DNA of 49,454 nucleotides from Candidatus Parcubacteria bacterium (GTDB lineage: Bacteria > Patescibacteriota > Minisyncoccia > UBA6257 > 2-01-FULL-56-20): the NCBI GenBank assembly GCA_027449645.1, contig DAIDLF010000022.1:1-49454 (forward strand), given 5' to 3'. Position numbers and translations under genes: made by a program. Under the pieces are notes generated by a model, which saw only the letters and a program-made list of their open reading frames with translations, was not told the origin of the DNA and ran no database searches. The stretch's first letter is position 1. The number at the start of each line of letters is the position of its first letter. Positions 14,446-31,650 of this stretch are shown piece by piece.

Positions 14446-14450
14446 GATCG

Positions 14451-15968: not shown

Positions 15969-15992
15969 GGGTTCGTCGTGATGAATATGGGG

Positions 15993-16589: not shown

Positions 16590-16694
16590 GAAAAAATGGA
16601 TATGCGCCGCTGTTGGATATATATACGCCCGGGCCCTCCGGTTTCGTGCATGGCCTGCACTATGTTCCAAAGCGGGCGCGTATTATATGATGAT

Positions 16695-17312: not shown

Positions 17313-17317
17313 ATCAT

Positions 17318-17803: not shown

Positions 17804-18275
17804 CGTCACCCTGCTCCTCAAGGGGCTCCATGCCGCCGCAGAACTGCTGGGCGGCCTCCTTCTGTATGCGGTCGGCCCGGGCGGCGTGGTGCGCGTCGCC
17901 CGCTATTTTCTTGGGGACGAGCTCCAGGAACAGCCGCGCGACGCCGTGGCGAATTACTTTTTGCGGCTTGCCGAATCGCTCGGAGGGACCGCGCACGCAT
18001 TTGCGGTGTTATATCTTTTGATCCACGGCGTGATCAACATGGCGATCGTGATAGCGCTCTGGAAGGAAAAGCTCTGGGCGTATCCGGCGTCGCTCGCGGC
18101 GCTCATGGCGTTCGTAGTCTATCAGTGCTATCTGCTTTCCTTCGGATTCTCGTTCTGGATGTTCGCCTTTACCGTGCTTGATATCGCCATTGTGCTCCTT
18201 GTATGGCATGAATACGGCGTGCTCAAACGGCGCCGGAAGGCGGCACATGCACGAAACGCGGCGCACGGTGCGTAG
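17742..18275 (+). CDS. DUF2127-like membrane protein
   Basis: In-frame ATG codons at 17742 and 17751. Contains ...VFDVTLLLKGLHAAAELLGGLLLY... with 4 TM helices. It overlaps the 3' end of the preceding ORF. Confidence 0.55.
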   Translation: MASMDIKFTRHQESEIHTVFDVTLLLKGLHAAAELLGGLLLYAVGPGGVVRVARYFLGDELQEQPRDAVANYFLRLAESLGGTAHAFAVLYLLIHGVINMAIVIALWKEKLWAYPASLAALMAFVVYQCYLLSFGFSFWMFAFTVLDIAIVLLVWHEYGVLKRRRKAAHARNAAHGA

Positions 18276-18304
18276 TAAGGGAATACCCATCATCCGCATT
18301 CACC

Positions 18305-18706
18305 ATGAAAAAATATCTCATTGGCCTTGCCGTGCTGTTCCTTGCCGGGTTTGCCTATTACGCGAGCCGGCATGTGGTTTCCGCTCCGGCCACGCAGGCC
18401 TTCACCAAGAGTCCTTCGGTCACCTATAAAGACGGCACCTATACCGGAAGCGCCGCCGATGCCTACTATGGCACCGTACAGGTGGCCGCGGTGATCTCGG
18501 GAGGAAAGATCACGGACGTGAAGTTCCTGCAGTATCCGGACACGCATTCCACCTCGGTCTTCATCAACCAGCAGGCCATGCCGTACCTCACCCAGGAAGC
18601 CGTCCAGGCCCAGAGCGCCAATGTGAACATCGTCTCGGGAGCCACGGAAACCAGCATGGCGTTCCAGAAATCCCTCGGGTCGGCGCTCGTGCAGGCTTCC
18701 GCTTAG
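18305..18706 (+). CDS. Extracytoplasmic FMN-binding domain protein, short-linker paralog
   Basis: 133 aa with an N-terminal TM or signal sequence. Its C-terminal 91 aa are identical to those of the 15993-16589 product. Confidence 0.8.
   Translation: MKKYLIGLAVLFLAGFAYYASRHVVSAPATQAFTKSPSVTYKDGTYTGSAADAYYGTVQVAAVISGGKITDVKFLQYPDTHSTSVFINQQAMPYLTQEAVQAQSANVNIVSGATETSMAFQKSLGSALVQASA
18425..18696. repeat. Inverted repeat copy B (272 bp), partner of 16003-16274
   Basis: See copy A. All three differences are synonymous third-codon positions. Confidence 0.95.
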
Positions 18707-18721
18707 CTTCTTTGCAAAGGC

Positions 18722-20257: not shown

Positions 20258-20276
20258 GGATAAAAATAGTTAAGGG

Positions 20277-20627
20277 TTATGCTCCGGAAGCGCGCTGGTC
20301 GATGAACGGCGCGATCTCCTCGGTAATTCGCGCAAGCAGATTCTCATAGCTCCGCCGCATATCCTCCCGTTCCTGCGGATCGGTGGCGCGTTGGAGGTCG
20401 TCGCCCAGCATGAGCGCGTGTTCCACGAGGTGAAGATGGTGTTCGAGGTCGGGGTAGTGGACCCCGCGATAGGCGAGGTCGGTGATGGCGTCGCGGAGGG
20501 CGGTGAGGCGGGCCATTTCCTCGTTGCGGGCATCCTGTTCCTTGGCGGCAAAAACCTCCTCGGGCGTCGCCTCACGGTCAAATCCCTGGTCGGGCTGCGG
20601 ATCAAATTGCGGCGTTTCGAATCCCAT
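20277..20627 (-). CDS. Small acidic hypothetical protein between eno and gpmI
   Basis: The ATG at 20627 avoids overlap with eno; the ORF is open up to 20645. Helical and acidic, with no recognised family. Confidence 0.4.
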   Translation of the reverse strand: MGFETPQFDPQPDQGFDREATPEEVFAAKEQDARNEEMARLTALRDAITDLAYRGVHYPDLEHHLHLVEHALMLGDDLQRATDPQEREDMRRSYENLLARITEEIAPFIDQRASGA

Positions 20628-20634
20628 AGAAAAG

Positions 20635-21942
20635 TTATTTGGCAAACGGGCGTTTCCCGGAATATACCGCCTTGGCGCCCAGCATCTCCTCTATGCGGAG
20701 CAATTCATTGTACTTGGCGACGCGGTCCGTGCGCGAAAGGGAACCGGTCTTGATCTGCCCCGTGCCGAGGCCGACGGCAAGGTGCGCGATCGTCACGTCC
20801 TCCGTCTCGCCGGAGCGGTGCGAAATGATGCTGTGCCATCCGGCGGCCTTCGCCATCTTCACGGCGGCGATGGTCTCACTGAGCGTGCCGATCTGGTTCG
20901 GCTTGATGAGGATCGCGTTGCCCGCCTTTTCCGCAATGCCCCGCGAAAGGAATGCGGTGTTCGTCACAAGAAGGTCGTCGCCCACGAGCTGGCGCGCGAT
21001 CTTTCCGGTCATCGCCGTCCAGCCCGCCCAGTCATCCTCGCCGAGCCCGTCCTCGATGGAGGCAATGGGATACTGCTCCGCGAGCGCGGCGAGCCAGGCG
21101 ATCATCTCGTCCGTGGAAAGCGAGCGGTTCTCGGTGGCAAGGCGATAGGTCTTGGTCGACGGGTCCCAGAGTTCCGATGCGGCAACATCGAGCGCAAGCA
21201 TGATATCCGTGCCGAGCGCATAGCCCGCGGCCGACACGGCGGCATCGATGAGGCTGAGCGCCTCCGCATTGCCGCCCTTCACGGCGGGCGCATAGCCGCC
21301 TTCGTCGCCGACGGTCGTGCCATAGCCATGGCTTGCAAGGACCTTCTTCAGCGCATGGAACACGTTCGCGCCCATCTGGAGCGCTTCGGAGAACGTTGCG
21401 GCGCCCGTGGGCGCGATCATAAATTCCTGGATGTCCGTGGAACCCGCCGCATGCCGGCCTCCGTTCACGATGTTCATCAGGGGAAGGGGAAGCACGTTCG
21501 CCTCGTCCGAGACGCCATCCGCCGGACCGCCGGCGAGCGCGTGCACATGCGAAAAGAGCGGTATGCCTTTGGCATTTGCCGTCGCATGGGCCGCGGCGAG
21601 CGAGGCGGCCAGGATGGCGTTCGCACCCAGGCGGGATTTCGTAGGGGTACCATCAAGGGCGATGAGCCTCTGGTCCAGCGCCTCCTGGTCTTCGGCATCC
21701 ATGCCTACGAGCGCCTGCGCGATCTCGCCGCCCACATTGGCCACGGCTTTGAGCACGCTTTTGCCGCCGTAGTTCTTGGGATCGCCGTCGCGGAGCTCGG
21801 TCGCCTCGCGGCTGCCCGTGGAAGCGCCGGACGGTACGGCGGCGCGTCCCATGATGCCCTGTTCAAGCATCACGTCCGCTTCTACCGTAGGATTGCCGCG
21901 CGAATCAAGGATCTGCCGTGCACGAATGGAGGTTATTTTCAT
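20635..21942 (-). CDS. eno: Enolase
   Basis: 435 aa. Contains [19 protein letters not shown], and the SHRSGETED signature appears as [19 protein letters not shown]. Confidence 0.95.
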
Positions 21943-21984
21943 ACTGCTGATTATATGCTATTCTTTACAGGAAATAAAACATCC

Positions 21985-23007
21985 ATGCGCACCAAAATTA
22001 TCGCGACCATAGGTCCCATATCCGATTCGCAAGACATGATCCAAAAATTCGTCGATGCCGGCATGGACATTGCCCGCATCAACTTTTCACACGCGAAGGA
22101 AGAATGGTTCCTTGAGGTCCAGAAGCGCCTCGCGGCGGCATCCCGGAAGGCAAAGCGGAACGTTCCCATCATGCAGGACCTCCAAGGTCCGCGCATCCGC
22201 GTAGGCGAACTGCCGAAGGAGGGCGTGAAGCTCGTGGAGGGGGAGACGGTGACCTTCTCCACGAAGAAGGACGATCCCCGCACCATCTTCATCGATGCCC
22301 CCAAGCTGCACCGCGACATGCGGCGCGGCGAAACGATCTATCTCGCAAACGGCGACATGGAGCTTTCGGTCACGCGCATCACGGGCAACCGCATCGCGGC
22401 GCGGGTGACGCGCGGCGGAATGCTGTATTCGCGCAAGGGCGTCAACCTGCCGGATACGGCGCTCTCCAATGCAGGCCTCACTCCGAAGGATGTCCGCGAC
22501 GTGAAATTTGCCTTAAAGCACGGCGTAAGCGTATTCGCCATCTCGTTCGTGCAGTCAGCGAAGGATATCGCGGCGCTCCGCAAGCTTGTCGGCCCGAAAG
22601 CGAAGATCATCGCCAAGGTGGAGACGGCCCTTGGCGTGCGCAATATCGACGAGATCATCCTCGCATCCGATGCCATCATGATCGCGCGCGGCGACCTCGG
22701 CATCGAGATCGCGGCGGAAAAGATCCCATTCATCCAGAAAAACCTCATCCGCCATGCCGCATGGTATGGCAAGGGCACCGTCACGGCTACGCAGATGCTG
22801 GTTTCCATGGTGGACCATGCCCGCCCCACGCGCGCGGAGGTGTCGGACATCGCGAACGCCGTCTGGGACGGCTCGGATGCGGTCATGCTCTCTGATGAGA
22901 CGGCGAGCGGAAAATATCCGCTGGAGGCGCTGCGGACCATGGCGAGGATCGTTGCCCAGGCCGAATCCTCCCGCTTCGACATCAAGAACCCGCTCGCGGG
23001 GTGGTAA
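21985..23007 (+). CDS. pyk: Pyruvate kinase, short form lacking the C-terminal regulatory domain
   Basis: The start MRTKIIATIGP is at 21985. Contains ARINFSH, MIARGDLGIE and MLSDETASGKYP. The ORF ends about 340 aa in, right after the barrel domain. Confidence 0.85.
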   Translation: MRTKIIATIGPISDSQDMIQKFVDAGMDIARINFSHAKEEWFLEVQKRLAAASRKAKRNVPIMQDLQGPRIRVGELPKEGVKLVEGETVTFSTKKDDPRTIFIDAPKLHRDMRRGETIYLANGDMELSVTRITGNRIAARVTRGGMLYSRKGVNLPDTALSNAGLTPKDVRDVKFALKHGVSVFAISFVQSAKDIAALRKLVGPKAKIIAKVETALGVRNIDEIILASDAIMIARGDLGIEIAAEKIPFIQKNLIRHAAWYGKGTVTATQMLVSMVDHARPTRAEVSDIANAVWDGSDAVMLSDETASGKYPLEALRTMARIVAQAESSRFDIKNPLAGW

Positions 23008-23036
23008 AGAACGTGGTAGCATAGGGAGATAAGGCC

Positions 23037-23591
23037 ATGATCGAGCATCAGCCGCTCCTGCAATCCAACGACAACAACGAAGTCGTGCTCCGCCTGGAGC
23101 GCTACGAGGACATTTTTTCGAGCTTTGACATCCGCCCTTACGCCAAACGGGCGCTTTCGGCTGATTTTCTGGAGGAGCTCAAATGGGCGGCGGCGGATAA
23201 GGCGGACGGCAAGGTGGAACTCACCCTGCTCATGCCCACGAAGGACAAGAACGAATATCATGAGACGATCATCAAAGAGCGCCTCACGGAACACTTCAGG
23301 AAGCACCACCGCGACCTGCTGGAGGAGAAGCGCCACGTGACCCGCGTAGGCTCCGCCATGGTAGCGGCCGGCGTGGCATGCATGGGCCTCGCCACGCTCA
23401 TCGTCACCGCCGGCGCCGAACAAGGTTTCTTCTTCTCATTCCTCGTGCTGCTCCTTGAGCCGGCGGCCTGGTTCCTGCTGTGGGAGGGGATGGACCAGAT
23501 CATTTTCACCTCGCGTGAAAAGAACCCCGAATTGGAGTTCTACCGGAAGATGAGCAATTCCCACGAGCACATCGCATTCAAGGCGTATTAA
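23037..23591 (+). CDS. Hypothetical membrane protein (2 TM)
   Basis: 184 aa with an SD-like GGGAGATAAGG upstream. No recognised family. Confidence 0.5.
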   Translation: MIEHQPLLQSNDNNEVVLRLERYEDIFSSFDIRPYAKRALSADFLEELKWAAADKADGKVELTLLMPTKDKNEYHETIIKERLTEHFRKHHRDLLEEKRHVTRVGSAMVAAGVACMGLATLIVTAGAEQGFFFSFLVLLLEPAAWFLLWEGMDQIIFTSREKNPELEFYRKMSNSHEHIAFKAY

Positions 23592-23659
23592 AATAAGAAA
23601 GGAGGATGCGCGCGCAGGCGTCGTTGATTTATCCTTTGATCGGAAAGGGGAAGACACCT

Positions 23660-25081
23660 ATGACGCAAGAGCAAGCTCTCAACATCCTCAAACTCGGCAA
23701 AAATGTTTTCCTTACCGGTGCGCCAGGCGCCGGAAAGACATATCTCCTTGCACAGTATATAGACTTTCTCCGATTGAACGATGTGAACCCCGCGATCACG
23801 GCCTACACGGGCATCGCGGCAAGCCATCTTAACGGGAAAACCCTCCATTCCTGGGCGGGGCTTCGGCCGGGCCCGCTTCGTGCGTTCGCGCAGGAGCGCG
23901 ACAGGGTGCGCAACAATCAGTTTTTGACCGCAAAGATTACACGGGCAAAGGTGCTCATCATTGATGAGATCTCCATGCTCAGCCCCGAACTTTTTGAACA
24001 GGTTGATTTCATCTGTAAAACTGCGCGGAACTCCATGGAACCTTTCGGAGGGTTGCAGCTCATATGCTCGGGCGATTTCTTCCAGATACCCCCGGTCAAC
24101 CAGGAAAACGGGCGGTTCGTACTCGATAGCGGGATATGGGAGGAGGCAAAAATGAAAATATGCTATCTCCATGAGCAGCACCGGCAAGGAGACCACAAAC
24201 TTCTCGGAATACTTGAGGAAATTCGGAGAGGGGATGTGGGCGCGGATGCCATTGCGCTCCTCAAAAGCAGGGTCGGGGCAAAAATCGATGCGCCGATCGG
24301 CGTCGCCCGGCTCTATACCCATAATGAAGACGTCGATGAGATCAACGAAAGGGAACTCCGCAAACTTACCGGCCCCGAGATCATCTATGAGGTGCATTCA
24401 ACCGGAGACGCCAAGGTCATCGAAAAGCTCAAAAAGGATTACCGGATAAAAAATATCAGCCTCAAAAAGGGCGCGCGGGTGATGTTCACCAGAAATAATG
24501 AGGGGATGGGCTATGTGAACGGGACCCTGGGAGAGATAGTTGATTTTGACGGGGACGGCGATCCCGTAGTGATGACCTTTGACCAGCAGAGGATCGCCGT
24601 GGCGCGAGAGCAATGGGATCTTGAGGACAACGGAGAAACAAAGGCGTCGGTTTGGCAGGTCCCCTTGAGGCTGGCATGGGCTATCACGGTCCATAAAAGC
24701 CAGGGCATGACGCTCGACGCTGCAGAGATAGAGCTTTCGCGCGCATTTGAAGAGGGCATGGGTTATGTGGCGCTTTCCCGGGTGAAACGATTGGAGAACC
24801 TATCCCTTATCGGATGGAATGATGTCGCGCTCAAGGTGAATGACCGCATCAAAAGGATCGATGATGAATTCCTGGAGCAATCAATTGAAACGGAGAATTA
24901 TTTGCACGGTCTTGGCGCCGAGCGCGTTGACCGTTTACAGAGGGAGTTTGTGGCGGCCATGAAAGAAGAAGGAGAGGCCCCAAAAGTGCAAGCCGGGGCA
25001 TTCCATTATGAACCGGACGAAGTTCCCGTCATTGATTTTGAGGGATACGGATCAATCAACGCCGAGGATATCCCTTTCTAG
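23660..25081 (+). CDS. PIF1/RecD-like SF1 DNA helicase
   Basis: Walker A is LTGAPGAGKTYLL and Walker B is LIIDEISML. Also contains GDFFQIPPV and HKSQGMTLD. The ATG at 23660 is preferred over the 23606 start in the ORF track. Confidence 0.8.
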   Translation: MTQEQALNILKLGKNVFLTGAPGAGKTYLLAQYIDFLRLNDVNPAITAYTGIAASHLNGKTLHSWAGLRPGPLRAFAQERDRVRNNQFLTAKITRAKVLIIDEISMLSPELFEQVDFICKTARNSMEPFGGLQLICSGDFFQIPPVNQENGRFVLDSGIWEEAKMKICYLHEQHRQGDHKLLGILEEIRRGDVGADAIALLKSRVGAKIDAPIGVARLYTHNEDVDEINERELRKLTGPEIIYEVHSTGDAKVIEKLKKDYRIKNISLKKGARVMFTRNNEGMGYVNGTLGEIVDFDGDGDPVVMTFDQQRIAVAREQWDLEDNGETKASVWQVPLRLAWAITVHKSQGMTLDAAEIELSRAFEEGMGYVALSRVKRLENLSLIGWNDVALKVNDRIKRIDDEFLEQSIETENYLHGLGAERVDRLQREFVAAMKEEGEAPKVQAGAFHYEPDEVPVIDFEGYGSINAEDIPF

Positions 25082-25095
25082 GGGGATATACAAAA

Positions 25096-25133
25096 GGCGC
25101 ACGCTTAGCCTCAGCTAGCGTGCGCCTGATTTT
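25096..25133. terminator. Bidirectional rho-independent terminator
   Basis: The stem GGCGCACGCT at 25096-25105 pairs perfectly with AGCGTGCGCC at 25117-25126. It is followed by TGATTTT and preceded by CAAAA. It lies between convergent genes. Confidence 0.75.
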
Positions 25134-25142
25134 AAAAAAAGA

Positions 25143-25622
25143 TCAAGAAGTGTAACGGACCGCAGTTTCCGTGTTTACGGCAGCCTGCACGGAGAGGATC
25201 TCGCGCGAGCACTTCATCATGCCCGCAACCCGAAGGTCTGTCTGCATGACACTCCTCGCGAGATCGAAAACGTGTTTTTCGAAGGCATGGAGCTGGCCCT
25301 TGGTCAGGCAATGCTTCAGTCTCGCATTGACCGAGTACTGATGGCTGCTCAACTGCTCCCCTCTAGTAATTTCAAGGGGGTTATTCATGCCATGGTCGCG
25401 CCAAGGGTGCTCTTCCTCTGCAATAGCAACATAGTTTGCTACTATTGCATCAAGGCGGCACTCCTCGATCTTTGTCCCCTCGCCAGTTCGCGAGTATAGT
25501 TGCGCCCGACGCTCGTAGGTGGCCACAGCCTCATTGGCCATGGTGATCACGAATGTCGCGCCCACGCAATAGCTCCGATTCTGTGGGGACACTCCGTATA
25601 TTAGTTCGTTTAGGGTCCTCAT
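25143..25622 (-). CDS. Hypothetical protein (159 aa), island-associated
   Basis: Strong SD (AAGGAGGG) 8 nt upstream of the ATG at 25622. GC looks intermediate by eye. No recognised domain. Confidence 0.6.
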   Translation of the reverse strand: MRTLNELIYGVSPQNRSYCVGATFVITMANEAVATYERRAQLYSRTGEGTKIEECRLDAIVANYVAIAEEEHPWRDHGMNNPLEITRGEQLSSHQYSVNARLKHCLTKGQLHAFEKHVFDLARSVMQTDLRVAGMMKCSREILSVQAAVNTETAVRYTS

Positions 25623-25707
25623 CGAGAAACCCTCCTTTGCTTGAACTTGCTGCTGAGTTGAAAATCAGCTGTTTATAATATTATCACTATTCAGCGATAC
25701 TGTCAAT

Positions 25708-25737
25708 AGTGCTGGCCGGCTTGGACGATGTTCGAAC
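25708..25737 (-). repeat. Degenerate copy of the tRNA-Gln 3' end and trailer (candidate distal att remnant)
   Basis: AGTGCTG..CCGG..GGA..TTCGAAC here compares with AGTGCTGCCGGGCAGGGATTCGAAC at 30381-30405. About 22 positions match, with two indels, in the same orientation. Confidence 0.3.
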
Positions 25738-25757
25738 TGTATTGTGGTATAATACAG
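25737..25757 (+). promoter_or_regulatory. Extended -10 promoter (TGGTATAAT) embedded in a 7-bp inverted repeat
   Basis: TGGTATAAT at 25745-25753. CTGTATT at 25737-25743 pairs with AATACAG at 25751-25757. It lies upstream of the AT-rich + strand ORFs. Confidence 0.5.
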
Positions 25758-25871
25758 GCATAGGGGCTTTAGGTAGATTTTACATATAATCTATTGAAAA
25801 GTGGATATTATGCGCTTAAAAGATTGGCATTGTCTTCAAGTCGCGATGCTTGTAATCATTACCGTTGAGCG

Positions 25872-26093
25872 ATGAAAGAGAAGAATAAAAAATTTTGGCG
25901 GTTTATTTTGGGGGTTGGTGCAATATCTTTTTTAGATCAGATAATAGAAAATAAAGAGGAGGAAATCAAAGAATTAAGGGCGAAACTTGAAGAAGCTCGC
26001 GAAAAAAAAGAACCACAGTTTGGTACATATCTCTATGAAACCTATGGCATAGAAGATGAGAATGACCTAGATGCGTGGTTTAATGAAGAATAG
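25872..26093 (+). CDS. Small hypothetical protein with one TM helix and an acidic coiled-coil tail (73 aa)
   Basis: ATG start, AT-rich codons. Contains FWRFILGVGAISFL, then EEEIKELRAKLEEAREKK. Confidence 0.5.
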   Translation: MKEKNKKFWRFILGVGAISFLDQIIENKEEEIKELRAKLEEAREKKEPQFGTYLYETYGIEDENDLDAWFNEE

Positions 26094-26204
26094 TTTCGGT
26101 TCGATAGGTTGAAGTACAGACTGGTTTGGAGATGTCTAGTATTAAGGTTTAATAAAAATGCAACAAGGAACTTAGAATTATAATCAATTATAGATTAAAA
26201 AATT

Positions 26205-26453
26205 ATGATATTTACTGATTTTGTTGAAAGGCTACTTCAGTTAAATGTTGATCGCGACAAGATATTTCTATTGGAATCCTTTGCCGCCAAACACGCAGAA
26301 CAAACCTTTTTAAAGGATGGAGAGCCTAAGGAAACCACTGCTCAAATTAGCATGAGAATTGAATTTTCAAGGGGGAAAATTTTGAGCGAATTTGAAGAAA
26401 ATATTAAAAATGGAAAATCGGTAGAGTATTTAGTCGATTTGTTATTAAAATAG
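26205..26453 (+). CDS. Small hypothetical protein (82 aa)
   Basis: ATG start, same strand and composition as its neighbours. No recognised domain. Confidence 0.45.
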   Translation: MIFTDFVERLLQLNVDRDKIFLLESFAAKHAEQTFLKDGEPKETTAQISMRIEFSRGKILSEFEENIKNGKSVEYLVDLLLK

Positions 26454-26492
26454 TTTCCCATTTTTTGGATTGTTTCTAGGTTTATATAAGGT

Positions 26493-26972
26493 ATGAACGA
26501 CTATAAAGCTGTGATAAAATCAGGCATATTACCAATAGAAAGCAATCCCGAATTGTTAGTGGAATACGGCAGAGCTTTTGCGCGGATTAACACTCTTGAA
26601 TATTTACTCGAAGAGTTAATCATTGTTAAAGGGGGCTTGGGATCGGTCAAAAAAGATCTGAGGGAGAAGTTGGTTAATAAAAAAATGTTAGGTCAAAAAA
26701 TAGAGCTTGCAGCTACCTTGCTCGAGCCAACGCTTATAAGTAAGCTTCGGTCTTTAAATGATAAGCGAATTCTGTTAGCTCATAATGCCACGGCTCAAGA
26801 AATAAATAATTCTGGTGACGAACAGAAACCGGGAAATTATGTTATTGGGATAGGCGAGAAGCAAGAAATTTTAACAAATAAATTTTTATCAGATATCAGT
26901 AATCTAGCTCAAGAACTTTTAGTAGATTTCCACGCAGCCTTTCTAAAGGGAACCAAATTTGAACTAAAGTAA
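26493..26972 (+). CDS. Hypothetical all-alpha protein with an HEPN-like Rx4H motif (159 aa)
   Basis: LRSLNDKRILLAHNAT resembles the R-x4-H (R.K.AH-type) catalytic motif of HEPN/Abi RNases. The size and helical character also fit. Confidence 0.4.
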   Translation: MNDYKAVIKSGILPIESNPELLVEYGRAFARINTLEYLLEELIIVKGGLGSVKKDLREKLVNKKMLGQKIELAATLLEPTLISKLRSLNDKRILLAHNATAQEINNSGDEQKPGNYVIGIGEKQEILTNKFLSDISNLAQELLVDFHAAFLKGTKFELK

Positions 26973-27878
26973 TCAGGAATACCCCGCAAGCATCCGCTTA
27001 TACGTGAGTGCTGTTGAAACAAGCGCACTGTTTTCTAAAACGAGCAGGGCAACGAGTACATTCTCAGGCTTCACGCCGTGCATCGAACCGAGAAAGTAGC
27101 GAGATAAACTCGTAATGCCATAAGCAGTATCAAATGGATCGTAGGGGATCATATCTTCGTATTTTCCAGCATCAAGGTCTTTTGCGAGAAGTTTCAGGTC
27201 AAGTCGCTCGAAGGGTTCGCAGCCAAGCTTTGTTTTTATTGATTCACCAAAAGAAGGGAAGCCCCTTTTAATATATTGAAACATGAAGCTCCCGATGGTA
27301 TTAAGTTTTATCTTTTTTATTTTGCCTGTATTTGTAATAAGAACCTCATCGGAAAGGAAAGCGAGTGATCGTCCAAGATCGGTATCGGTCGCTTTCAGCT
27401 GTGCGAAGGTTATTACGCTTCCAACAAGCATACTACTCACAACGTCCATCGTGTTGCGTTTCATATATTTGAAGAATGCCTCCTTTGCTTCTCGAACATC
27501 CGAAGCGAGTTGGCGTTTCTTCTTCATTCTGAGGTCTTCCGCAACGCATTCAAGAGCAAGATCAAAATCTTCGTTGTTGTCAGCATGATCGATGATATAG
27601 TCGATCTGGAAATGAAGTATGTCCTTCATCATATTATTTAAGGCGTGTTCATTGTCGCCCTCGGGAATCCTAAGCTTACCCGCAAGCCGTGAGAAGCTTT
27701 TTTCAAGATTTTCCCTCGATATGCGCTTTTCTTGATCGTCTTTGCAGCGTCCTTTTTGATATTCGGAACAGATATAATAAGCCCCGCTCTTGGTGAGGGT
27801 ATGGCCTGAAACGGCAAATTTAAGCACGCCTTTAGGAAAATAGGAGGGTGCTTTGGGGGTGAAGGCTGATCGAGGCAT
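26973..27878 (-). CDS. Hypothetical protein whose N-terminus resembles the zinc-ribbon/coiled-coil segment of a large serine recombinase (possible remnant or fusion)
   Basis: FPKGVLKFAVSGHTLTKSGAYYICSEYQKGRCKD....LAGKLRIPE here compares with FPLRGFMTCDVCGCMLTATLQKGKYVYYYCTNGKKICDQ....LFGQLRIDE in the 28927-30432 product. The first Cys pair is lost here. Confidence 0.45.
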   Translation of the reverse strand: MPRSAFTPKAPSYFPKGVLKFAVSGHTLTKSGAYYICSEYQKGRCKDDQEKRISRENLEKSFSRLAGKLRIPEGDNEHALNNMMKDILHFQIDYIIDHADNNEDFDLALECVAEDLRMKKKRQLASDVREAKEAFFKYMKRNTMDVVSSMLVGSVITFAQLKATDTDLGRSLAFLSDEVLITNTGKIKKIKLNTIGSFMFQYIKRGFPSFGESIKTKLGCEPFERLDLKLLAKDLDAGKYEDMIPYDPFDTAYGITSLSRYFLGSMHGVKPENVLVALLVLENSALVSTALTYKRMLAGYS

Positions 27879-27966
27879 AGAGTTACACGCCCTTTATACC
27901 TCAAAATCCTCATTTTTACACGTTCGCTCATCCACTACCGACAAACCGCCCCCGTTGTAGGTAGTG

Positions 27967-28176
27967 ATGCCCAATTTTAGCCAAGAACTCATATCCGAGG
28001 TGATCGCCTATTTTGGCGAGCGGGAGGACCGCCTTATAGTCCCCGAAGAAGCGGAGGCGTATTTGGCATCCTTAGCCGAGCTGTATTGGTGCTTCACGGA
28101 GTCGATGAGGCGCAGGGAGTTGGGCAGGAGGGCCGATCCGCCGCAGGCGGGCGGCCCAAACCTTCCCCTGACTTGA
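27967..28176 (+). CDS. Small hypothetical protein upstream of Rep (69 aa)
   Basis: ATG at 27967; the ORF track starts it at a GTG at 27964. Its stop TGA at 28174-28176 lies inside the putative nick-site motif. Confidence 0.35.
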   Translation: MPNFSQELISEVIAYFGEREDRLIVPEEAEAYLASLAELYWCFTESMRRRELGRRADPPQAGGPNLPLT

Positions 28177-28197
28177 TATCCCCACATAGTTGTAATC
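28168..28197 (+). other. Candidate rolling-circle origin or nick site (phiX174-like ACTTGATAT core)
   Basis: CTGACTTGATATCCCCACATAGTTGTAAT lies immediately 5' of the Rep ATG. As I recall it, the phiX174 origin is CAACTTGATATTAATAACACTATAG. Confidence 0.4.
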
Positions 28198-28198
28198 C

Positions 28199-28930
28199 AT
28201 GGGAATTCATTTTAGAAAATATGGCAAAGTCATCGAGATCACGGAAATCGAGCACGAGCCGTCCAAAGTACGCGTATATGCTCCGCGAATCCGCCCTGAT
28301 GTTCACGGGTCTCGGCGATCAGATAGTATTCGAAGGACAAGGACAATATGTCTGTGGCGCGTGTTTGCTGGCGTTGAAGAATTTGGAAGCCCGCTCCTCG
28401 TTACTCTTACCTTCGACGGAGACGCCTCGGATGCCTCTTATGCAAACGATACCCTTCGCCGCTTCCAAGTGCGGTTGCGCGATCAATATCCTGAAGCCCA
28501 ATCCCTCTTTGTTCCCGAATTATCCCCACGAGGACGCATCCACTTTCATGGTTTGCTCTTTAACCTGCCAATGCATCTCGGCGATACGCGCCAGGGTAGA
28601 CGGATCGTGGAGCATGGCACGGAACGAAAAGACAGGATTATCGCCCAGCTTTGGGGCGAAGGTTTTGTGGATGTCCGAAAAACTGATGGTTCTCCAAGGT
28701 TGGGATATTATATCGCCAAGTACATCACAAAGGGGTCAGAGCAAACCCTCTTTAACGCCATGAGGATTCTTCGTATCTCTCGCGGATTCCCTCGGCAGAT
28801 TGAGATCAGTGGCCCCATGGCCGAGGAGCTTAAACGCCGTTACGACCCGAAAACACCAATCAAGGAGTGGGAGGGTAATAATATCTTCCTTGGCAAGATC
28901 AAACGGAAAACGTATATTCAAGACACATGA
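28199..28930 (+). CDS. HUH-superfamily rolling-circle replication initiator (phiX174 gpA / Microviridae VP4-like Rep)
   Basis: 243 aa. Motif 1 is LLVTLTF, motif 2 is RIHFHGLLF (HUH), and motif 3 is GYYIAKYITKG (YxxKY; compare phiX gpA FYVAKYVNK). Also contains LWGEGFVDV. Confidence 0.75.
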   Translation: MGIHFRKYGKVIEITEIEHEPSKVRVYAPRIRPDVHGSRRSDSIRRTRTICLWRVFAGVEEFGSPLLVTLTFDGDASDASYANDTLRRFQVRLRDQYPEAQSLFVPELSPRGRIHFHGLLFNLPMHLGDTRQGRRIVEHGTERKDRIIAQLWGEGFVDVRKTDGSPRLGYYIAKYITKGSEQTLFNAMRILRISRGFPRQIEISGPMAEELKRRYDPKTPIKEWEGNNIFLGKIKRKTYIQDT

Positions 28931-30432
28931 ACTATATTCTCTATTGCCGCAAATCGTCTGAGGCAGAAGATCGCCAAGTCCTTTCTCTTGATTCTCAAGA
29001 GACGGAGCTGAAGCGCCTCGCGGCGGCGGAAGGATATAAGATCATCGAGGTATATCGCGAATCCATGTCGGCAAAGGCTCCGAATCGGCCGCTCTTTGAT
29101 GGGATGATGAATCGGATCGAGAAAGGGGAGGCGCAAGGTGTACTTTGTTGGAAGCTCGATCGTCTCGCACGCAATCCCGTGGACGGCGGCAAGATAAGCT
29201 GGCTTCTTCAGCGCGGCGTGATCCAATCCATTCAAACTCATGACCGCGTGTATCGTCCTTCTGATAATGTCCTTATGATGGCCGTCGAGTTCGGTATGGC
29301 GAACCAATACGTTCTTGATCTAACCGCGAACGTGAAGCGCGGTAATCGGGCGAAGCTTGAAAAAGGTGGCTGGCCGAATATGGCCCCCTATGGATATTGG
29401 AATGATAAGAATGATAAATCGGTGAAAATCGTTTCCGAAAACGCGGCCGTGGTGCGCCGTGCTTTTGAACTGCACGCTACGGGCTTATACGATCTCCGCG
29501 AAACTGCGGATCGGCTCTACGAAGAAGGGCACCGCACACCGAGCGGCAAGCGGGTCGCCAAAAGCATGGTGCATAAAATCCTCCGTAATTCATTCTACTG
29601 TGGCATTATGCTCAAGGACGGCGCGTATTATGCGGGCAAGCACGAGCCGATCGTCTCAAAAGACCTTTTTGATAAGGCGAATGACGTGCTTGATGGAAAG
29701 AATCATTCGAAAGTCCAAAAACATTTCTTCCCACTCCGTGGCTTTATGACCTGCGATGTATGCGGCTGTATGCTCACCGCTACGCTCCAAAAGGGAAAAT
29801 ACGTATATTACTATTGCACGAACGGAAAAAAGATTTGTGATCAGCGCAAAAAACACCTTACTGCCAAGGATGCCGAAATTCTGATCGGCTCGCTTTTTGG
29901 CCAGTTACGGATCGACGAGCGCATTTTGGATATCGCTTTTAAGGCCTACGAGGAGAGGTTTAAATACGAGGAGGTTTCCGTGGAGGATCGCCGTCAAATC
30001 GTCCAAAATTCGATCTCTGCGCTTGAGGAGCGACAGAATCGCCTCGTGGATAGTTTTGTGGCGGGAATCACGCCTAGCGGCGTATATGAGCAAAAAATGA
30101 CCACCCTGAGGAACGAGAGGGTTGCGCTTCAAACTCAGCTTCAGCAGATCGGACAAGGGAATGATCCGTCAGAAATCACTTTCGAACAAATCAAAAACGT
30201 ATTTTTGACAGCAAATTCAATAGCTAATTCGTTCCTCGATGGATCGGATGAAGAAAAACGAGAGTATGCTCAAATTTTACTTTCGAACGTTTCGTTGAGA
30301 GATCAAAAAATCCAAAAATATCAGTTCAAACCCGTCTATCAGGCCATCGCAAATATACCAAAAAAAGACGATTTTGAGAGAGTGCTGCCGGGCAGGGATT
30401 CGAACCCCGATAGATGGATTCAGAGTCCATAG
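28927..30432 (+). CDS. Large serine recombinase (integrase-type)
   Basis: 501 aa. The catalytic N-terminus is ILYCRKSSEAEDRQ...LDRLARN. A recombinase domain follows, then a zinc ribbon (CDVCGC...YYYCTNGKKIC) and a coiled coil. An ATGA start/stop overlap couples it to Rep. The last 16 codons overlap tRNA-Gln. Confidence 0.85.
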   Translation: MNYILYCRKSSEAEDRQVLSLDSQETELKRLAAAEGYKIIEVYRESMSAKAPNRPLFDGMMNRIEKGEAQGVLCWKLDRLARNPVDGGKISWLLQRGVIQSIQTHDRVYRPSDNVLMMAVEFGMANQYVLDLTANVKRGNRAKLEKGGWPNMAPYGYWNDKNDKSVKIVSENAAVVRRAFELHATGLYDLRETADRLYEEGHRTPSGKRVAKSMVHKILRNSFYCGIMLKDGAYYAGKHEPIVSKDLFDKANDVLDGKNHSKVQKHFFPLRGFMTCDVCGCMLTATLQKGKYVYYYCTNGKKICDQRKKHLTAKDAEILIGSLFGQLRIDERILDIAFKAYEERFKYEEVSVEDRRQIVQNSISALEERQNRLVDSFVAGITPSGVYEQKMTTLRNERVALQTQLQQIGQGNDPSEITFEQIKNVFLTANSIANSFLDGSDEEKREYAQILLSNVSLRDQKIQKYQFKPVYQAIANIPKKDDFERVLPGRDSNPDRWIQSP

Positions 30433-30455
30433 TCCTACCATTAGACGACCCGGCA
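30385..30455 (-). tRNA. tRNA-Gln (anticodon CTG)
   Basis: Hand-folded 71-nt cloverleaf: TGCCGGG TC GTCT AATGGTA GGAC T ATGGA CTCTGAA TCCAT CTAT CGGGG TTCGAAT CCCTG CCCGGCA G. It has U1:A72 and G73 as in bacterial tRNA-Gln. CCA is not encoded. Confidence 0.9.
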
Positions 30456-30489
30456 ATGGGAAGGGTAGGGATGTACGCGAACGCTCTTT

Positions 30490-30517
30490 ATTATACGCAC
30501 CCTGCGCTTTTTATCAA
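30490..30517 (-). promoter_or_regulatory. Near-consensus promoter for tRNA-Gln
   Basis: On the minus strand, TTGATA (30517-30512), a 16 nt spacer, then TATAAT (30495-30490). This is about 35 nt upstream of the tRNA 5' end. Confidence 0.6.
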
Positions 30518-30531
30518 TATGCCGTCCGGGA

Positions 30532-31650
30532 CTAGCCCAGGTTTTCCACGATGGCGACCTCCAGCGGCACGACGGCGAAGGGGGAGTAGCGCATTTCGGC
30601 GTAGGCGCGGATGAGCGCGCGGATGAGCTTCACGAGCGCCGCGGTGTCGCTTGCGGCGCCAAGCTGCTTGATGGCGGTCACTTCGTCGCGGGTGAGGTCC
30701 TTTTCAAAGACCGGCTCGAGCGCGGGATTCACCGAAAGCGAAAGCACCTTGCGCAGGTAGTGGATGAGGTCGCGCGTGAACTGCACGAGATTGTGGCCGT
30801 CGTCCTGGAGCGCGGCGATCACGCCAAGCGCGCCCTTGGCGTCGCGGGCAAGGAGGAGCGCGGCGAGCTCATGGACGCGGCGGAGACCGGTGCGCCCGGT
30901 GATGCGCTCGGCATCGTCCAGGGTGATGGACGCGCTGGAAGCGGCTTTATTGAAAGAGGATACCTGTTCCAAAAGCGACTCCGCATCGCGGAAGCTGCCT
31001 TCGCCTGCGGCGGCAAGGAGCTCCAGTGCGCCGTCGTCGATCTTGATCTTTTCGGCCTTCGCGATCGCGGCGAGCTTTTCCATGATGGTCGCCTTGGCCT
31101 GCTTGCGGAACGCAAAGCGCTGGGCGCGCGAGATGATCGTCGCCGGAAGCTTTTCGTACTCCGTGGTGGCCATGATGATCACCACATGCCGCGGCGGCTC
31201 CTCGAGCGTTTTGAGGAGCGCGTTCCATGCGGCACCCGTGAGCATGTGCGCCTCATCAATGATGTACACCTTAAATGCGCCGCCTCCCGGCGCCGCCTTG
31301 ATGTTCTCCTTGAGATTGCGGATCTCATCGATGCCCCGGTTGGAGGCCGCATCGATCTCGATGACGTCCATGGAGTTCTGCGCATCGATCGCGAGGCATT
31401 CGCGGCATTCGTTGCACGGTTCGCAGAGGGCCGCGAACTTCGGATCGTTCCGGCGCTTCTCGCAGTTCAGGAGCTTGGCAATGAGCCGCGCCGTCGTGGT
31501 CTTCCCGGTGCCGCGCGCCCCGTAAAAAATATATGCCTGCCCAAGGCGCCCGGCTTTCGCCGCGTTCTTGAGGATCTGCATGTTGAGATCCTGCCCAAGC
31601 ACGTCCTCCAGCTTTTGGGGGCGGTATTTGCGATAGAGCGCTTGTGCCAT
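30532..31650 (-). CDS. dnaX: DNA polymerase III subunit gamma/tau
   Basis: The start MAQALYRKYRPQKLEDVLGQ is at 31650. Contains GARGTGKTTTARL, a CEPCNECRECLAI zinc module, YIIDEAHMLT and a SRAQRF sensor. Confidence 0.9.
   Translation of the reverse strand: MAQALYRKYRPQKLEDVLGQDLNMQILKNAAKAGRLGQAYIFYGARGTGKTTTARLIAKLLNCEKRRNDPKFAALCEPCNECRECLAIDAQNSMDVIEIDAASNRGIDEIRNLKENIKAAPGGGAFKVYIIDEAHMLTGAAWNALLKTLEEPPRHVVIIMATTEYEKLPATIISRAQRFAFRKQAKATIMEKLAAIAKAEKIKIDDGALELLAAAGEGSFRDAESLLEQVSSFNKAASSASITLDDAERITGRTGLRRVHELAALLLARDAKGALGVIAALQDDGHNLVQFTRDLIHYLRKVLSLSVNPALEPVFEKDLTRDEVTAIKQLGAASDTAALVKLIRALIRAYAEMRYSPFAVVPLEVAIVENLG

Follow-up and report, generated by a model that had tools for sequence, protein, structure and literature searches.

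A putative integrative rolling-circle plasmid-like element at a tRNA-Gln gene of a Patescibacteria bacterium

Organization and boundaries of the element

The DNA analyzed, henceforth referred to as the window, is a 49,454-nucleotide stretch from a Paceibacterota/Minisyncoccia bacterium. It contains an integrated element of 4,673 bp (25,708–30,387) at the end of a tRNA-Gln gene, and the two ends of the element share the sequence AGTGCTG (25708–25714 and 30381–30387). The features are as follows.

25703–25754, plus strand: attL, the only family att-motif HMM match in the window (nhmmer, E = 8.9e-9), exactly at the GC drop
25872–26093, plus strand: cargo ORF, 73 aa, hydrophobic at the N-terminus and containing a charged helix, within a 34% GC block
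26205–26453, plus strand: cargo ORF, 82 aa, no matches
26493–26972, plus strand: cargo ORF, 159 aa, no matches
26973–27878, minus strand: accessory ORF, 301 aa, recurring beside the core module in some relatives
27964–28176, plus strand: small core ORF, 70 aa, whose N-terminal domain is helical; homologs lie upstream of Rep
28130–28195, plus strand: putative double-strand origin, hairpin (28130–28157) and conserved block CTGACTTGATATCCCCACATAGTTGTAA (28168–28195)
28199–28930, plus strand: HUH rolling-circle Rep, 243 aa (PF23343, E = 7.6e-14)
28927–30432, plus strand: large serine recombinase (SR, integrase), 501 aa (Resolvase, Recombinase, Zn_ribbon_recom)
30381–30455, minus strand: attR and target, AGTGCTG (30381–30387) and tRNA-Gln(CTG) (30384–30455; ARAGORN, Rfam 61.4 bits)

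The GC content of the host (~0.59–0.61) falls to 0.34–0.37 at 25.6–27.0 kb, lies at 0.42–0.55 up to 30.4 kb and is again at least 0.60 at tRNA-Gln. The resulting profile is a mosaic, with averages of 0.39 for the cargo, 0.50 for the core and 0.59 for the host. Trinucleotide distance to the host background was 0.29–0.73 across the element, compared to a mean of 0.158 (s.d. 0.034, maximum 0.235) for host windows. A preliminary description made from the sequence alone had reported a low-GC element of about 5.3 kb at tRNA-Gln, starting at 25134 directly after a terminator. The compositional deviation and the tRNA-Gln(CTG) target were borne out, but not the size or the left end. GC is still 0.52–0.55 over 25.0–25.6 kb and drops at ~25.65 kb, and because the sole family att site of the window is at 25703–25754, the element starts at ~25.71 kb, ~0.57 kb further right. 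A second 159-aa ORF (25143–25622) is outside the element; a counterpart was sought beside other element copies and none was found.

Rep protein and putative origin

The Rep was identified by profile HMM search as a member of PF23343 (REP_ORF2-G2P), above the gathering score, and also matched phrog_3419 (E = 1.4e-8). The family invariants LLVTLTF, HFHGL and Y171-x-x-K-Y175 agree with the three HUH motifs recognized earlier in this ORF, and the protein is of the two-tyrosine type (Y171, Y175) without a helicase domain. Its designation as phiX-type is appropriate for the motifs, the nick-site core and the fold, but not at the level of the Phage_GPA profile (PF05840), which was below threshold (E = 0.0089). 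An AF2 model (pLDDT 79.8) gave 233 viral-structure matches at E <= 1e-3, and the nearest predicted structures were ORF2/G2P, gene A and microvirus initiators. No sequence match was obtained in the PDB, and the Rep family had no relatives among 2.9 million IMG/VR contigs. The Rep and SR ORFs are joined by an ATGA overlap, as described, by which the two may be translationally coupled.

The putative origin, just 5' of rep, consists of a GC-rich hairpin and CTGACTTGATAT. The origin block is nearly invariant, about 25–45 nt 5' of rep in all loci, and its nick motif, ACTTG/ATAT, occurs once per element and matches the phiX174 cleavage core in 9/9 positions. Comparison with the phiX174 sequence confirmed that ACTTGATAT is identical to positions 4301–4309, within which we take the phiX174 nick to be G4305/A4306. 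The corresponding nick in the window is predicted between G28175 and A28176. In relatives, hairpins that differ in sequence lie ahead of the block, with z-scores reaching -9, whereas the window hairpin is weak (dG = -15.9, z = -1.1). No single-strand origin was identified in the element. The Rep could have a transfer role instead of, or besides, replication.

Serine recombinase, tRNA target and att sites

Resolvase, Recombinase and Zn_ribbon_recom were each above threshold in the SR, in agreement with its earlier assignment as a large serine recombinase. The protein also matched the phrog_95 integrase (E = 5.9e-81), and its architecture is that of a complete integrase, including a zinc ribbon and a coiled-coil region. 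Its best NCBIfam matches were CcrB and CcrA, at 80 bits against a family cut-off of 900 bits. The last 16 codons of the SR are antisense of the host tRNA, which is intact, and a promoter-like TTGATA-16-TATAAT is located on the host side (30517–30490).

In attL, AGTGCTG is followed by the element-borne P' half-site GCCGGCTTGGACGATGTTCGAAC, which mimics the tRNA 3' end plus a 5-nt insertion. attL and attR are in register, with the TTSGAAC motif shifted by a constant 5 nt; the shift between tRNA and element site was found at 12/13 loci compared, the tRNA T-loop variant of locus L020 not being cleanly scored. The attB and attP geometry of the LI integrase shows the same kind of spacing shift (PMC3783163), and the insertion in the element half-site agrees with known serine-integrase att sites. 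The reconstructed attP would contain …GAGAGAGTGCTGGCCGGCTTGGACGATGTTCGAAC…, and the junction expected for the excised element of the window is …GAGAGAGTGCTGGCCGGCTTGGACGATG…. A hybrid tRNA at L006 (G3-G70 mismatch) hints at a crossover deeper within the tRNA, and in L011 and L029 an exact tRNA repeat is located 150–200 nt outside the motif copy.

Cargo and small core ORF

The four cargo ORFs of the window, including the 301-aa ORF, are unannotated. The 73-aa ORF had no significant match in Pfam, PHROGs or PADLOC. The 301-aa ORF has homologs in L012 (37%) and L017 (41%) with matching position and strand, and its N-terminal part shows weak similarity to the zinc-ribbon domain of recombinases (BLASTP against SR residues 267–331, E = 0.005; Pfam Zn_ribbon_recom, E = 0.2, below threshold). 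The segment outside the three-gene core varies between copies, and in relatives consists mostly of defence or toxin genes. A small-ORF homolog was detected by jackhmmer directly 5' of Rep in 26/26 loci with enough upstream sequence; the tail of the window copy is in another frame than that of the family. This ORF could encode a regulator or a recombination directionality factor.

Family distribution and free circular forms

The core module, comprising the small ORF, the two-tyrosine HUH Rep (PF23343) and the SR, was present without exception in the related Patescibacteria loci analyzed (26 species-representative genomes and metagenome contigs). The SR directly follows Rep in 26/26 species-representative loci and in the other fetched loci, and Rep homologs of 60–77% identity were found throughout Patescibacteria, on contigs of up to 941 kb. 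The SR end was complete in 24 species-representative loci, and in 17 of these the SR 3' end overlaps an opposite-strand tRNA; nine tRNA species are used as targets. All att-motif matches in related loci (38/38) are on the Rep/SR strand, with the nearest motif 3.9–6.7 kb upstream of each SR end. Several loci contain arrays of 2–7 same-strand repeated sites with short cargo segments between them. The closest Rep relative (L045, 77%) has a 14/15 repeat at both ends of a 4.8-kb unit.

Circular forms were recovered for two relatives. Loci L037–L039 represent one 6,521-bp circle, being circular permutations of each other with 100% identity and 30-nt overlaps, and L021 together with L048–L056 represents one 5,696-bp circle found in nine assemblies with 0 mismatches. 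Neither contains a tRNA, and the only att motif of each is located at the SR 3' end. The free circles came from many samples and were assembled at about 20x coverage, although tandem chromosomal repeats would look alike in circular assemblies alone. Additionally, the ends of an L011-like element are joined in contig L016. In the empty-site comparison, the left side of sibling L041 was rearranged, and L044 is broken within the tRNA.

Interpretation and alternatives

The conserved Rep with its phiX/pC194-type origin, the att sites at tRNA genes and the free circular relatives together argue for an integrated rolling-circle-type replicon with a serine integrase, as initially proposed. We therefore consider it probable that window positions 25,708–30,387 are an integrated copy of a small integrative rolling-circle plasmid-like element, of a family specific to Patescibacteria.

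A possible but less favored reading is that of an integrative and mobilizable element (IME), in which the Rep is mainly a relaxase, the hairpin with ACTTG/ATAT is an oriT, and ssDNA is passed to the chromosomal monoderm-type (MPF_FATA-like) T4SS carried by most CPR genomes. Such a role would be compatible with rolling-circle maintenance. In Firmicutes, the relaxases of IMEs and ICEs that use this T4SS class are of the RCR-initiator type (MobT/Rep_trans, Rep_2, PHA00330), some of which double as replication initiators (PMC5704250, PMC5357655). The stronger conservation of Rep (56–77%) than of SR (41–53%) and the absence of transfer genes from the element also fit. In contrast, no TcpA/VirD4-like coupling protein was found in any cargo set, the preprint on the CPR T4SS itself prefers a non-conjugative role, and the free circles, at their coverage and in many samples, fit a replicating episome.

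That the window copy is a decayed, immobile and vertically inherited remnant of a family that may be mobile is rather unlikely. Neither an empty site nor a circle was found for the window element, its origin hairpin is weaker than those of relatives, its small-ORF tail is frame-shifted and its GC is mosaic. Yet none of the three core ORFs is truncated, their catalytic motifs are intact, the att and nick motifs are near the family consensus and the tRNA is intact. The strong compositional contrast to the host argues against long residence. The window copy may still be active.

An ssDNA-virus prophage or satellite (microvirus, inovirus or plectrovirus-like), with structural genes too divergent for recognition or supplied by a helper, is improbable despite the Rep fold, the phiX-like nick core, the small ORFs, one of them (25872–26093) with a hydrophobic N-terminus, the unannotated cargo, and unit sizes of 4.4–6.7 kb typical of ssDNA phages. 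The non-core segment varies between copies and its recognizable parts are defence or toxin genes rather than virion proteins. The window contains no capsid-size ORF or Zot-like ATPase, and no structural matches in Pfam, PHROGs, PADLOC or NCBIfam. These results, with the lack of IMG/VR relatives of the Rep, uphold the earlier view that this is not a microvirus prophage.

It is highly improbable that the element is a rolling-circle transposon (IS91, ISCR or Helitron-like) moved by the Rep, with the SR only a resolvase: the two-tyrosine HUH enzyme has a weak fold match to Helitron transposase and several loci have repeated sites around cargo, but those sites are tRNA-3' mimics linked to the SR gene end and tRNA targets rather than to Rep, the nick motif occurs singly, the SR is a full integrase, circles hold one att site, and no copies were seen at non-tRNA sites with ori-like/ter-like ends and without att motifs.

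Comparison with known systems

The pairing of a Rep with a serine integrase, for which the preliminary description knew no described class, is not unprecedented, although its core inference holds; precedents are streptococcal IMEs, actinomycete AICEs and Dehalococcoides ssrA islands. te Poele et al. are said to have described, in 2008, actinomycete AICEs that pair RepSA-type Reps with integrases. AICEs such as pSAM2 integrate at tRNA genes, excise as a circle and undergo rolling-circle replication by a phiX-superfamily Rep, as is proposed for the element. At 9–24 kb, they encode an FtsK/TraB-type dsDNA translocase and spread functions, and their integrase is mostly a tyrosine enzyme accompanied by Xis; none of the AICE transfer genes was found in the element. 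Rolling-circle replication of pSAM2 is mentioned in PMC3146451.

The Dehalococcoides ssrA islands (DsiB) and staphylococcal SCC (CcrAB) likewise have a large serine recombinase at one island end, whose ORF always continues through att into the RNA gene used as target. This tRNA-like gene is targeted in its 3' part or T-loop region and remains functional, the 3' end is repeated, and tandem accretion includes integrase-less units (PMC3146451). In the ssrA islands, the recombinase gene overlaps its own att site at a tRNA-like gene (PMC3146451). CcrB and CcrA are also the best NCBIfam matches of the SR, but far under the family cut-offs. The element further differs in having a single recombinase without a DsiA/CcrA partner, many tRNA targets instead of ssrA or rlmH, and much smaller units (4.4–6.7 kb). 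Its family has a Rep gene, a putative origin and recovered free circles, whereas ssrA islands were reported without replication genes.

In streptococcal IMEs, a site-specific integrase of the tyrosine or serine type is found together with an RCR-initiator-type HUH protein (Rep_trans, Rep_2, PHA00330); these elements are similarly small and integrated, with variable cargo and accretion (PMC5357655, PMC5704250). In contrast to the element, their serine-integrase members disrupt protein genes from inside, their tRNA/3'-end targeting is by tyrosine integrases and a TcpA coupling protein is present in many of them. Further differences are the Rep family (PF23343), the small-ORF-Rep-SR operon, which is fixed here, and the phylum of the host.

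The Rep shares the HUH motif and the Y-x-x-K-Y pair with phiX174 gpA and pC194-family (superfamily I) initiators. Unlike gpA, it has only 243 aa, and its putative origin follows a hairpin 5' of rep, whereas that of phiX174 is located within the gene. The element also differs in being integrative and in having no virion genes. The arrays of same-strand sites, with cargo between them and an adjoining recombinase gene and fixed chromosomal anchor, resemble integrons, but the enzyme is a serine recombinase rather than the tyrosine IntI, the sites are tRNA-3' mimics rather than attC hairpins, and the window element has a single site.

Proposed mechanism and significance

In the proposed mechanism, the SR would recombine the attP of the element with an attB located at the very 3' end of a tRNA gene. 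attP would span the stop region of the SR gene, with the SR 3' coding end as P half-site and the tRNA-3'-end mimic, its T-loop-like TTSGAAC 5 nt further out, as P' half-site; the tRNA acceptor and T-arm would form the B' half-site. Integration would leave the tRNA intact and swap the C-terminal tail of the SR. After excision, the circle would be copied by the two-tyrosine HUH Rep, nicking ACTTG/ATAT in the hairpin-flanked origin just 5' of rep. The variable segment between attL and core would carry the cargo, mostly defence or toxin systems in relatives.

Neither this element family nor any described plasmid-like elements in Patescibacteria (CPR) were found in the searchable literature. The family represents widespread small circular DNAs of Patescibacteria that insert by a serine recombinase, are probably copied by a rolling-circle mode and usually carry anti-phage defence cargo.

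Boundaries and composition of the integrated element

The element is a 4,673-bp unit inserted at a tRNA-Gln(CTG) gene, a length set by the shared block AGTGCTG, which stands at 25708-25714 and again at 30381-30387.

Principal features of the element
25703-25754: left attachment site (attL)
26973-27878, minus strand: 301-aa accessory ORF
27964-28176, plus strand: small ORF
28199-28930, plus strand: Rep; PF23343 REP_ORF2-G2P, E = 7.6e-14, 52.2 bits (cut-off 27.8), profile positions 2-98 of 99
28927-30432, plus strand: large serine recombinase (SR); PF00239 Resolvase 4.9e-20, PF07508 Recombinase 3e-17, PF13408 Zn_ribbon_recom 2e-6, all above cut-off
30381-30455: right attachment site (attR)
30384-30455, minus strand: tRNA-Gln(CTG); ARAGORN, Rfam 61.4 bits

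The host is a Paceibacterota/Minisyncoccia bacterium, as judged by named relatives of its DnaX, and the 10.6-23 kb interval contains housekeeping genes. Host G+C of ~0.59-0.61 falls to 0.34-0.37 at 25.6-27.0 kb, recovers partly to 0.42-0.55 as far as 30.4 kb and is again 0.60 or more at the tRNA. In 1-kb windows, trinucleotide distance to the host background was 0.29-0.73 within the element versus a host mean of 0.158 (s.d. 0.034, maximum 0.235). The compositional anomaly reported in the preliminary description is therefore real by both computed measures. Its left edge was misplaced: the collapse had been put right after a terminator at 25133, but 25.0-25.6 kb still has 0.52-0.55 G+C and the drop comes at ~25.65 kb. 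Exactly one copy of the family attachment (att) motif was detected in the window (25703-25754, E = 8.9e-9 with the motif HMM), and it is located at this drop.

The element is itself a mosaic, with a cargo segment (25725-27950) of 0.39 G+C (minimum 0.34) and a core (27951-30397) of 0.50 beside a host value of 0.59. This is consistent with core and cargo having different origins, both foreign to the host.

Two other delimitations were rejected. An inverted repeat (27900-27917 / 30361-30378) taken as the termini would leave out the conserved accessory ORF and the att motif, and many chance pairs are equally good. The PIF1 helicase block at 23.6-25.6 kb is without homologs beside other copies and deviates only mildly in composition. 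The wider block at 23037-25622 holds three ORFs: a membrane-like one of 184 aa, a PIF1/RecD-like helicase of 491 aa and one of 159 aa. This block has an intermediate G+C of 0.53 and a trinucleotide distance of 0.26-0.27 against the host maximum of 0.235, has no counterpart in the sibling and may have been acquired earlier.

Two sibling contigs were compared for an empty site. The nearest long sibling, L041 (DnaX 80% identical), is collinear right of dnaX and rearranged to its left; its tRNA-Gln(CTG) lies 3.3 kb from dnaX and adjoins GIY-YIG and LAGLIDADG-like genes, an arrangement unlike that of the window. About 20 kb of mostly housekeeping sequence (10644-30538) is without a collinear counterpart in this sibling. 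In the nearest relative, L044 (DnaX 85%), the tRNA starts right after dnaX, and the 2-kb contig breaks inside the tRNA. The tRNA-Gln/dnaX locus is a rearrangement hotspot.

Rep and serine recombinase

Profile searches bore out both protein assignments of the preliminary description. The Rep ORF scored above threshold for an HUH family, and its motifs LLVTLTF, H115-F-H117 (HFHGL) and Y171-x-x-K174-Y175 are invariant in 22 family members; the Y171/Y175 pair has the two-tyrosine Y-x-x-x-Y spacing of phiX gpA. The phage profile Phage_GPA (PF05840) itself remained sub-threshold (E = 0.0089, 15.5 bits, cut-off 31.4). No Rep relatives were found when IMG/VR was scanned with the Rep alignment, and a Rep profile search against PDB sequences gave no match. 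A fold search of PDB with the AlphaFold model (pLDDT 79.8) returned weak HUH matches (E > 0.001). Against predicted viral structures, the model gave 233 matches at E ≤ 1e-3, those with names being ORF2/G2P-domain proteins, a “replication gene A protein” and microvirus replication initiators.

The downstream ORF, joined to rep by the ATGA stop/start overlap described previously, is a large serine recombinase by its three domains and matches the PHROG integrase family phrog_95 (E = 5.9e-81). Its scores against CcrB (80 bits, cut-off 900) and CcrA (68 bits, cut-off 700) are below equivalog level, and no second, partner recombinase was found within the element.

A three-gene core shared across Patescibacteria

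A protein search with Rep retrieved 268 relatives; the best 120 of the 268 share 60-77% identity with it and have a length of ~243 aa. Those of the 120 that carry a name belong to Patescibacteria (Paceibacteria, Azambacteria, Harrisonbacteria, Parcubacteria), on contigs of 1 kb to 941 kb. An exhaustive HMMER search returned 1,016 clusters (50% identity) at E ≤ 1e-3 and 20 at E ≤ 1e-30. An SR gene directly follows rep in 26/26 loci of species-representative genomes and also in the metagenome contigs fetched, and a homolog of the small ORF precedes rep in all 26 loci with enough upstream sequence. The small ORF, Rep and SR therefore form a core module of three genes. Identity to the window proteins is far higher for Rep (56-77%) than for SR (41-53%). 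The closest relative of the window element, L045 (Rep 77%, SR 53%), is located at a tRNA-Leu(GAG) in a genome of 44-46% G+C.

Free circular forms

Members of the family were also assembled as circles. Three Logan contigs from three samples (L037-L039; SRR28413686/647/657) are 100% identical and circularly permuted, with 30-nt terminal overlaps, and close into a 6,521-bp circle that carries, besides the three core genes, genes for an HTH protein and for a CBASS-like CD-NTase as cargo. A second circle of 5,696 bp (L021 and L048-L056; SRR32277372-376) was assembled in nine samples. Its SPAdes contigs (5,751 bp, 55-nt overlap) and Logan contigs (5,726 bp, 30-nt overlap) are without exception rotations of this single circle, with 0 mismatches. 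Besides the three core genes, it carries a Shedu SduA gene and a 526-aa ORF. Both circles lack a tRNA and have a single att motif right at the SR 3' end, and in contig L016 the SR end of an element like that of locus L011 is joined to that element's left end. These observations identify the motif as the attachment site and, together with the tRNA-borne copies, indicate that the family occurs both integrated and excised. No free circular form of the window's own element was found.

Anatomy of the attachment site

The tRNA-Gln at the right end of the element was confirmed by ARAGORN and Rfam. In 17/24 species-representative loci with a complete SR end, the SR ORF terminates within an opposite-strand tRNA gene or directly adjoins one. 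The targets belong to nine tRNA species (Gln-CTG, Gln-TTG, Leu-TAA, Leu-GAG, Trp, Gly-CCC, Ser-CGA, Lys-CTT and Lys-TTT), and target identity is not tracked by SR similarity. An att motif of ~50 nt recurs upstream of the core, 3.9-6.7 kb from the SR end to the nearest copy; its HMM found 38 copies in 433 kb, all 38 on the Rep/SR strand and 0 on the other.

For 13 loci, the left-end site was aligned with the SR-end/tRNA junction on the shared block. Counted from the terminal base of the tRNA, the T-loop-type heptamer TTSGAAC begins at +16, whereas in the element site it begins at +21, a 5-nt shift observed in 12/13 loci; the thirteenth, L020, has the tRNA T-loop variant ATCGGAC, which the scan did not score cleanly. 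In this register, the element site mimics a tRNA 3' end, from the acceptor strand through the T-stem strand to the T-loop, with a CGATG-like insertion. In the integrase of a Listeria phage, the motif bound by the zinc-ribbon domain (ZD) occupies bp 11-19 of attB and bp 16-24 of attP half-sites, 5 bp nearer the centre in attB (PMC3783163). The aligned sites would fit this attB/attP rule if crossover occurs within the block they share, at the very 3' end of the tRNA gene.

A crossover at that position would explain why the SR-adjacent tRNA is always intact, why the T-stems of target tRNAs co-vary on both strands (e.g. L011 versus L018) and why the “prefix” of the left site is conserved in Gln-targeting elements across hosts without pairing with the resident tRNA. 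It would also account for the conservation at the DNA level of the SR C-terminal codons PK[NK]xDF, which would form the P half-site of the element. The simplest case is L045, with GTGCGCGGGAG[T/A]GGA at both element ends. A long direct repeat of the tRNA 3' end is absent from the left boundary in the window, as would follow from a crossover at the last ~4 nt of the tRNA; this replaced decay as the reason for the missing repeat. The predicted attP junction of the window element would read …GATTTTGAGAGAGTGCTGGCCGGCTTGGACGATGTTCGAACTG… and the predicted empty tRNA-Gln site …ACTGTCAATAGTGCTGCCGGGCAGGGATTCGAACC….

Two loci carrying the same element (identical Rep) in different right-hand contexts, L006 (SR 492 aa) and L003 (SR 502 aa), bear on this placement. 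The tRNA-Gln of L006 (12180-12251) has a G3-G70 mismatch in the acceptor stem, as though the element had brought the 3' bases along, which would suggest, against a crossover at the 3' end, that the element supplies at least five tRNA bases. A crossover in the T-loop, with the left prefix as the displaced end of the host tRNA, was rejected; it leaves unexplained both the conservation of the prefix across hosts and its failure to pair with the resident tRNA, and the ZD-like motif would adjoin the crossover.

With crossover at the extreme 3' end, the last SR codons would depend on the integration state. The SR tail in the window, …ERVLPGRDSNPDRWIQSP, is coded by tRNA antisense sequence; in the reconstructed circle it would be …ERVLAGLDDVRTVLWYNTGIGALGRFYI, which resembles the SR tails of the free circles. 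Integration would thereby alter the SR C-terminal tail.

In L011 (1182-1199 / 1361-1410) and L029 (2433-2454 / 2579-2630), an exact or near-exact tRNA 3'-end copy lies 150-200 nt outside the att mimic, and the joined-ends contig L016 uses such an outer site. These copies suggest composite elements or a variant att architecture, with GAAC displaced by ~11 nt rather than 5. At the right end of the window element, a promoter-like TTGATA-16-TATAAT (30490-30517, minus strand) lies upstream of tRNA-Gln, and the A-run of the conserved PKK codons of SR (30355-30383) forms, on the tRNA strand, a T-run right after the tRNA 3' end. Transcription of the tRNA would therefore enter the SR gene antisense, and it may end at this T-run.

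Candidate replication origin

At every locus, the block CTGACTTGATAT(C)CCCTCAcAGTTGTAA was found 25-45 nt before the start of rep, with a G+C-rich hairpin on its upstream side. The hairpin sequence varies by locus while the stem is kept (L017, dG = -28.4, z = -9.2; L012, z = -7.7; L023, z = -6.7); the window hairpin at 28130-28157 is weaker (dG = -15.9, z = -1.1). Single-strand origins (sso) are structure-defined and lineage-specific.

Direct comparison with the phiX174 sequence showed that ACTTGATAT is identical at 9/9 positions to phiX174 4301-4309, in gene A. Cleavage by phiX174 gpA falls between G4305 and A4306, and plasmids of the pC194 family are nicked at CTTG|ATA. Based on this match and these cleavage sites, the putative Rep nick site in the window is written CTGACTTG|ATAT, with the nick predicted at G28175|A28176.

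The small-ORF family ends in a nearly invariant PDLISPHSC (alignment A3), and in the window the same peptide is encoded in another frame. Conservation therefore acts on the DNA, and the peptide is translated origin sequence. The window PDLISPHSC frame (28140-28195) falls in a spurious ORF, 28086-28763, and the window small ORF has a different tail. A database search with the small ORF gave 2 matches only.

Cargo and att-site arrays

Gene content outside the three-gene core is not conserved between copies. Recognisable among 60 cargo proteins of current units were N6/N4 methyltransferases with a BsaWI-type endonuclease, ThsB-TIR with 8xMP, CD-NTase with YunG and DUF2726, Shedu SduA, AAA_15/AAA_21 ATPases, trypsin-like proteases, HEPN and HIT proteins. 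Older segments contain HepT with a nucleotidyltransferase, Fic, ParB, NUDIX and an SR remnant. In the window element, ORFs other than Rep and SR, including four cargo ORFs, had no match in Pfam, PHROGs, PADLOC or NCBIfam.

The 301-aa accessory ORF has homologs beside the core in L012 and L017. The N-terminus of its product (…FAVSGHTLTKSGAYYICSEYQKGRC…) aligns weakly with the zinc-ribbon region of SR (267-331, E = 0.005), with the first cysteine pair missing, and the protein may be a recombinase-derived regulator. Its family profile had no match among PDB sequences. Homology between the two recurrent ~300-aa accessory families was rejected (hhalign probability 0.2%).

Seven loci (L019, 1140-16532; L020, 1033-7226; L024, L027, L029, L030 and L032) contain 2-7 same-strand att-like copies, nearly identical within a locus and separated by SR-less cargo segments of 0.4-3.9 kb; L019 has two copies downstream of SR. 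The arrays suggest either serial integration (tandem accretion) followed by loss of core genes or mobilisation and exchange of cassettes in trans. A second, divergent large SR gene (31-35% identity over 320-350 aa) is present in L024 (4410-5765) and L034 (4457-5485), ~5 kb upstream of the Rep-SR module and without a second Rep. Left of the att site of the Azambacteria element in L003, positions 1-5400 encode a SocA/Panacea antitoxin, a zeta toxin, DpnI and an Mrr-nSTAND NTPase; this tRNA-Gln locus is a larger defence island.

Comparison with known systems

The preliminary description had concluded that this is not a microvirus prophage but an integrated rolling-circle-type element with a serine integrase, and both points stand. 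No major capsid protein (>400 aa) or other virion gene was found in the element by ORF size, PHROG or Pfam; the largest non-core ORF, of 301 aa, has no structural match. Nor does it look like a prophage of the Inoviridae or Plectroviridae, which encode a Zot/pI-type morphogenesis ATPase and a small coat protein; no P-loop ATPase was found in the element with Pfam or PHROGs, and the cargo varies from copy to copy. Integrons use the tyrosine recombinase IntI with attI/attC sites, in contrast to the serine recombinase and tRNA-3' mimic repeats here. An integrative mobilizable element (IME) would join its own integrase to a relaxase/oriT and lack mating-pore genes; here the integrase is present, no type IV secretion system (T4SS) genes were found, and Rep and the origin might serve as relaxase and oriT.

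On the integration side, the element resembles the Dehalococcoides ssrA islands and SCC elements, in which a large SR ORF runs over the att site into the target RNA gene with insertion in the T-loop region, and which show 3'-end repeats and tandem accretion including integrase-less units (PMC3146451). On the replication side, it resembles replicons of the pC194/phiX superfamily. The pairing of Rep with a serine integrase had been described as unprecedented, which needs correcting: AICEs such as pSAM2 combine Rep with an integrase, as do streptococcal IMEs with RCR-type relaxases (PMC5704250, PMC5357655). An FtsK/TraB-like translocase or spread genes of the pSAM2 type were not found in the window or among 96 cargo proteins of relatives.

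The element belongs to none of the systems compared: CcrB, CcrA and Phage_GPA are sub-threshold, and a partner recombinase, translocase, coupling protein and virion gene are lacking. It is probably an integrative rolling-circle element, whose distinctive traits are the host phylum, the fixed three-gene core, the tRNA-mimic att site and the defence cargo. No paper was found on this Rep-SR family, or on plasmids or any integrative replicon of CPR bacteria.

Possible role in transfer and significance

A 2025 preprint reports that ~80% of CPR assemblies contain a monoderm-type T4SS and that recognisable relaxases are almost entirely absent. In Firmicutes, the same T4SS class works with RCR-Rep-type relaxases (PMC5704250, PMC5357655), so a transfer role of Rep is possible by analogy, and Rep is a concrete candidate for the CPR T4SS relaxase. 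We consider it unlikely that small-ORF-Rep-SR elements are the main vehicle of horizontal transfer in CPR bacteria, combining a relaxase/oriT for the T4SS with SR-driven cassette stacking. If so, Rep would be the “missing” relaxase and the hairpin/ACTTG|ATAT its oriT, both very different from known ones, and they would feed single-stranded DNA to the near-universal, monoderm-type chromosomal T4SS of Patescibacteria. SR would use tRNA-3' mimics to stack and exchange SR-less cassettes at tRNA genes, a tRNA-anchored serine-recombinase analogue of the integron that builds defence islands in minimal genomes.

The family additionally provides naturally diversified serine integrases, which appear to recognise the universal T-loop of tRNAs while switching target among at least nine tRNA species; this bears on the engineering of integrase specificity. 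CPR/Patescibacteria account for a large part of the diversity of bacteria; their genomes are tiny, and genetic work with them is almost impossible. A compact, widespread element that has a candidate origin, a Rep, an integrase and att sites, and that occurs free and integrated, offers a blueprint for CPR shuttle and integration vectors. It also shows how defence systems, among them restriction-modification, Thoeris-like TIR, CBASS-type CD-NTase, Shedu and toxin-antitoxin, move between CPR genomes of widely differing G+C content.
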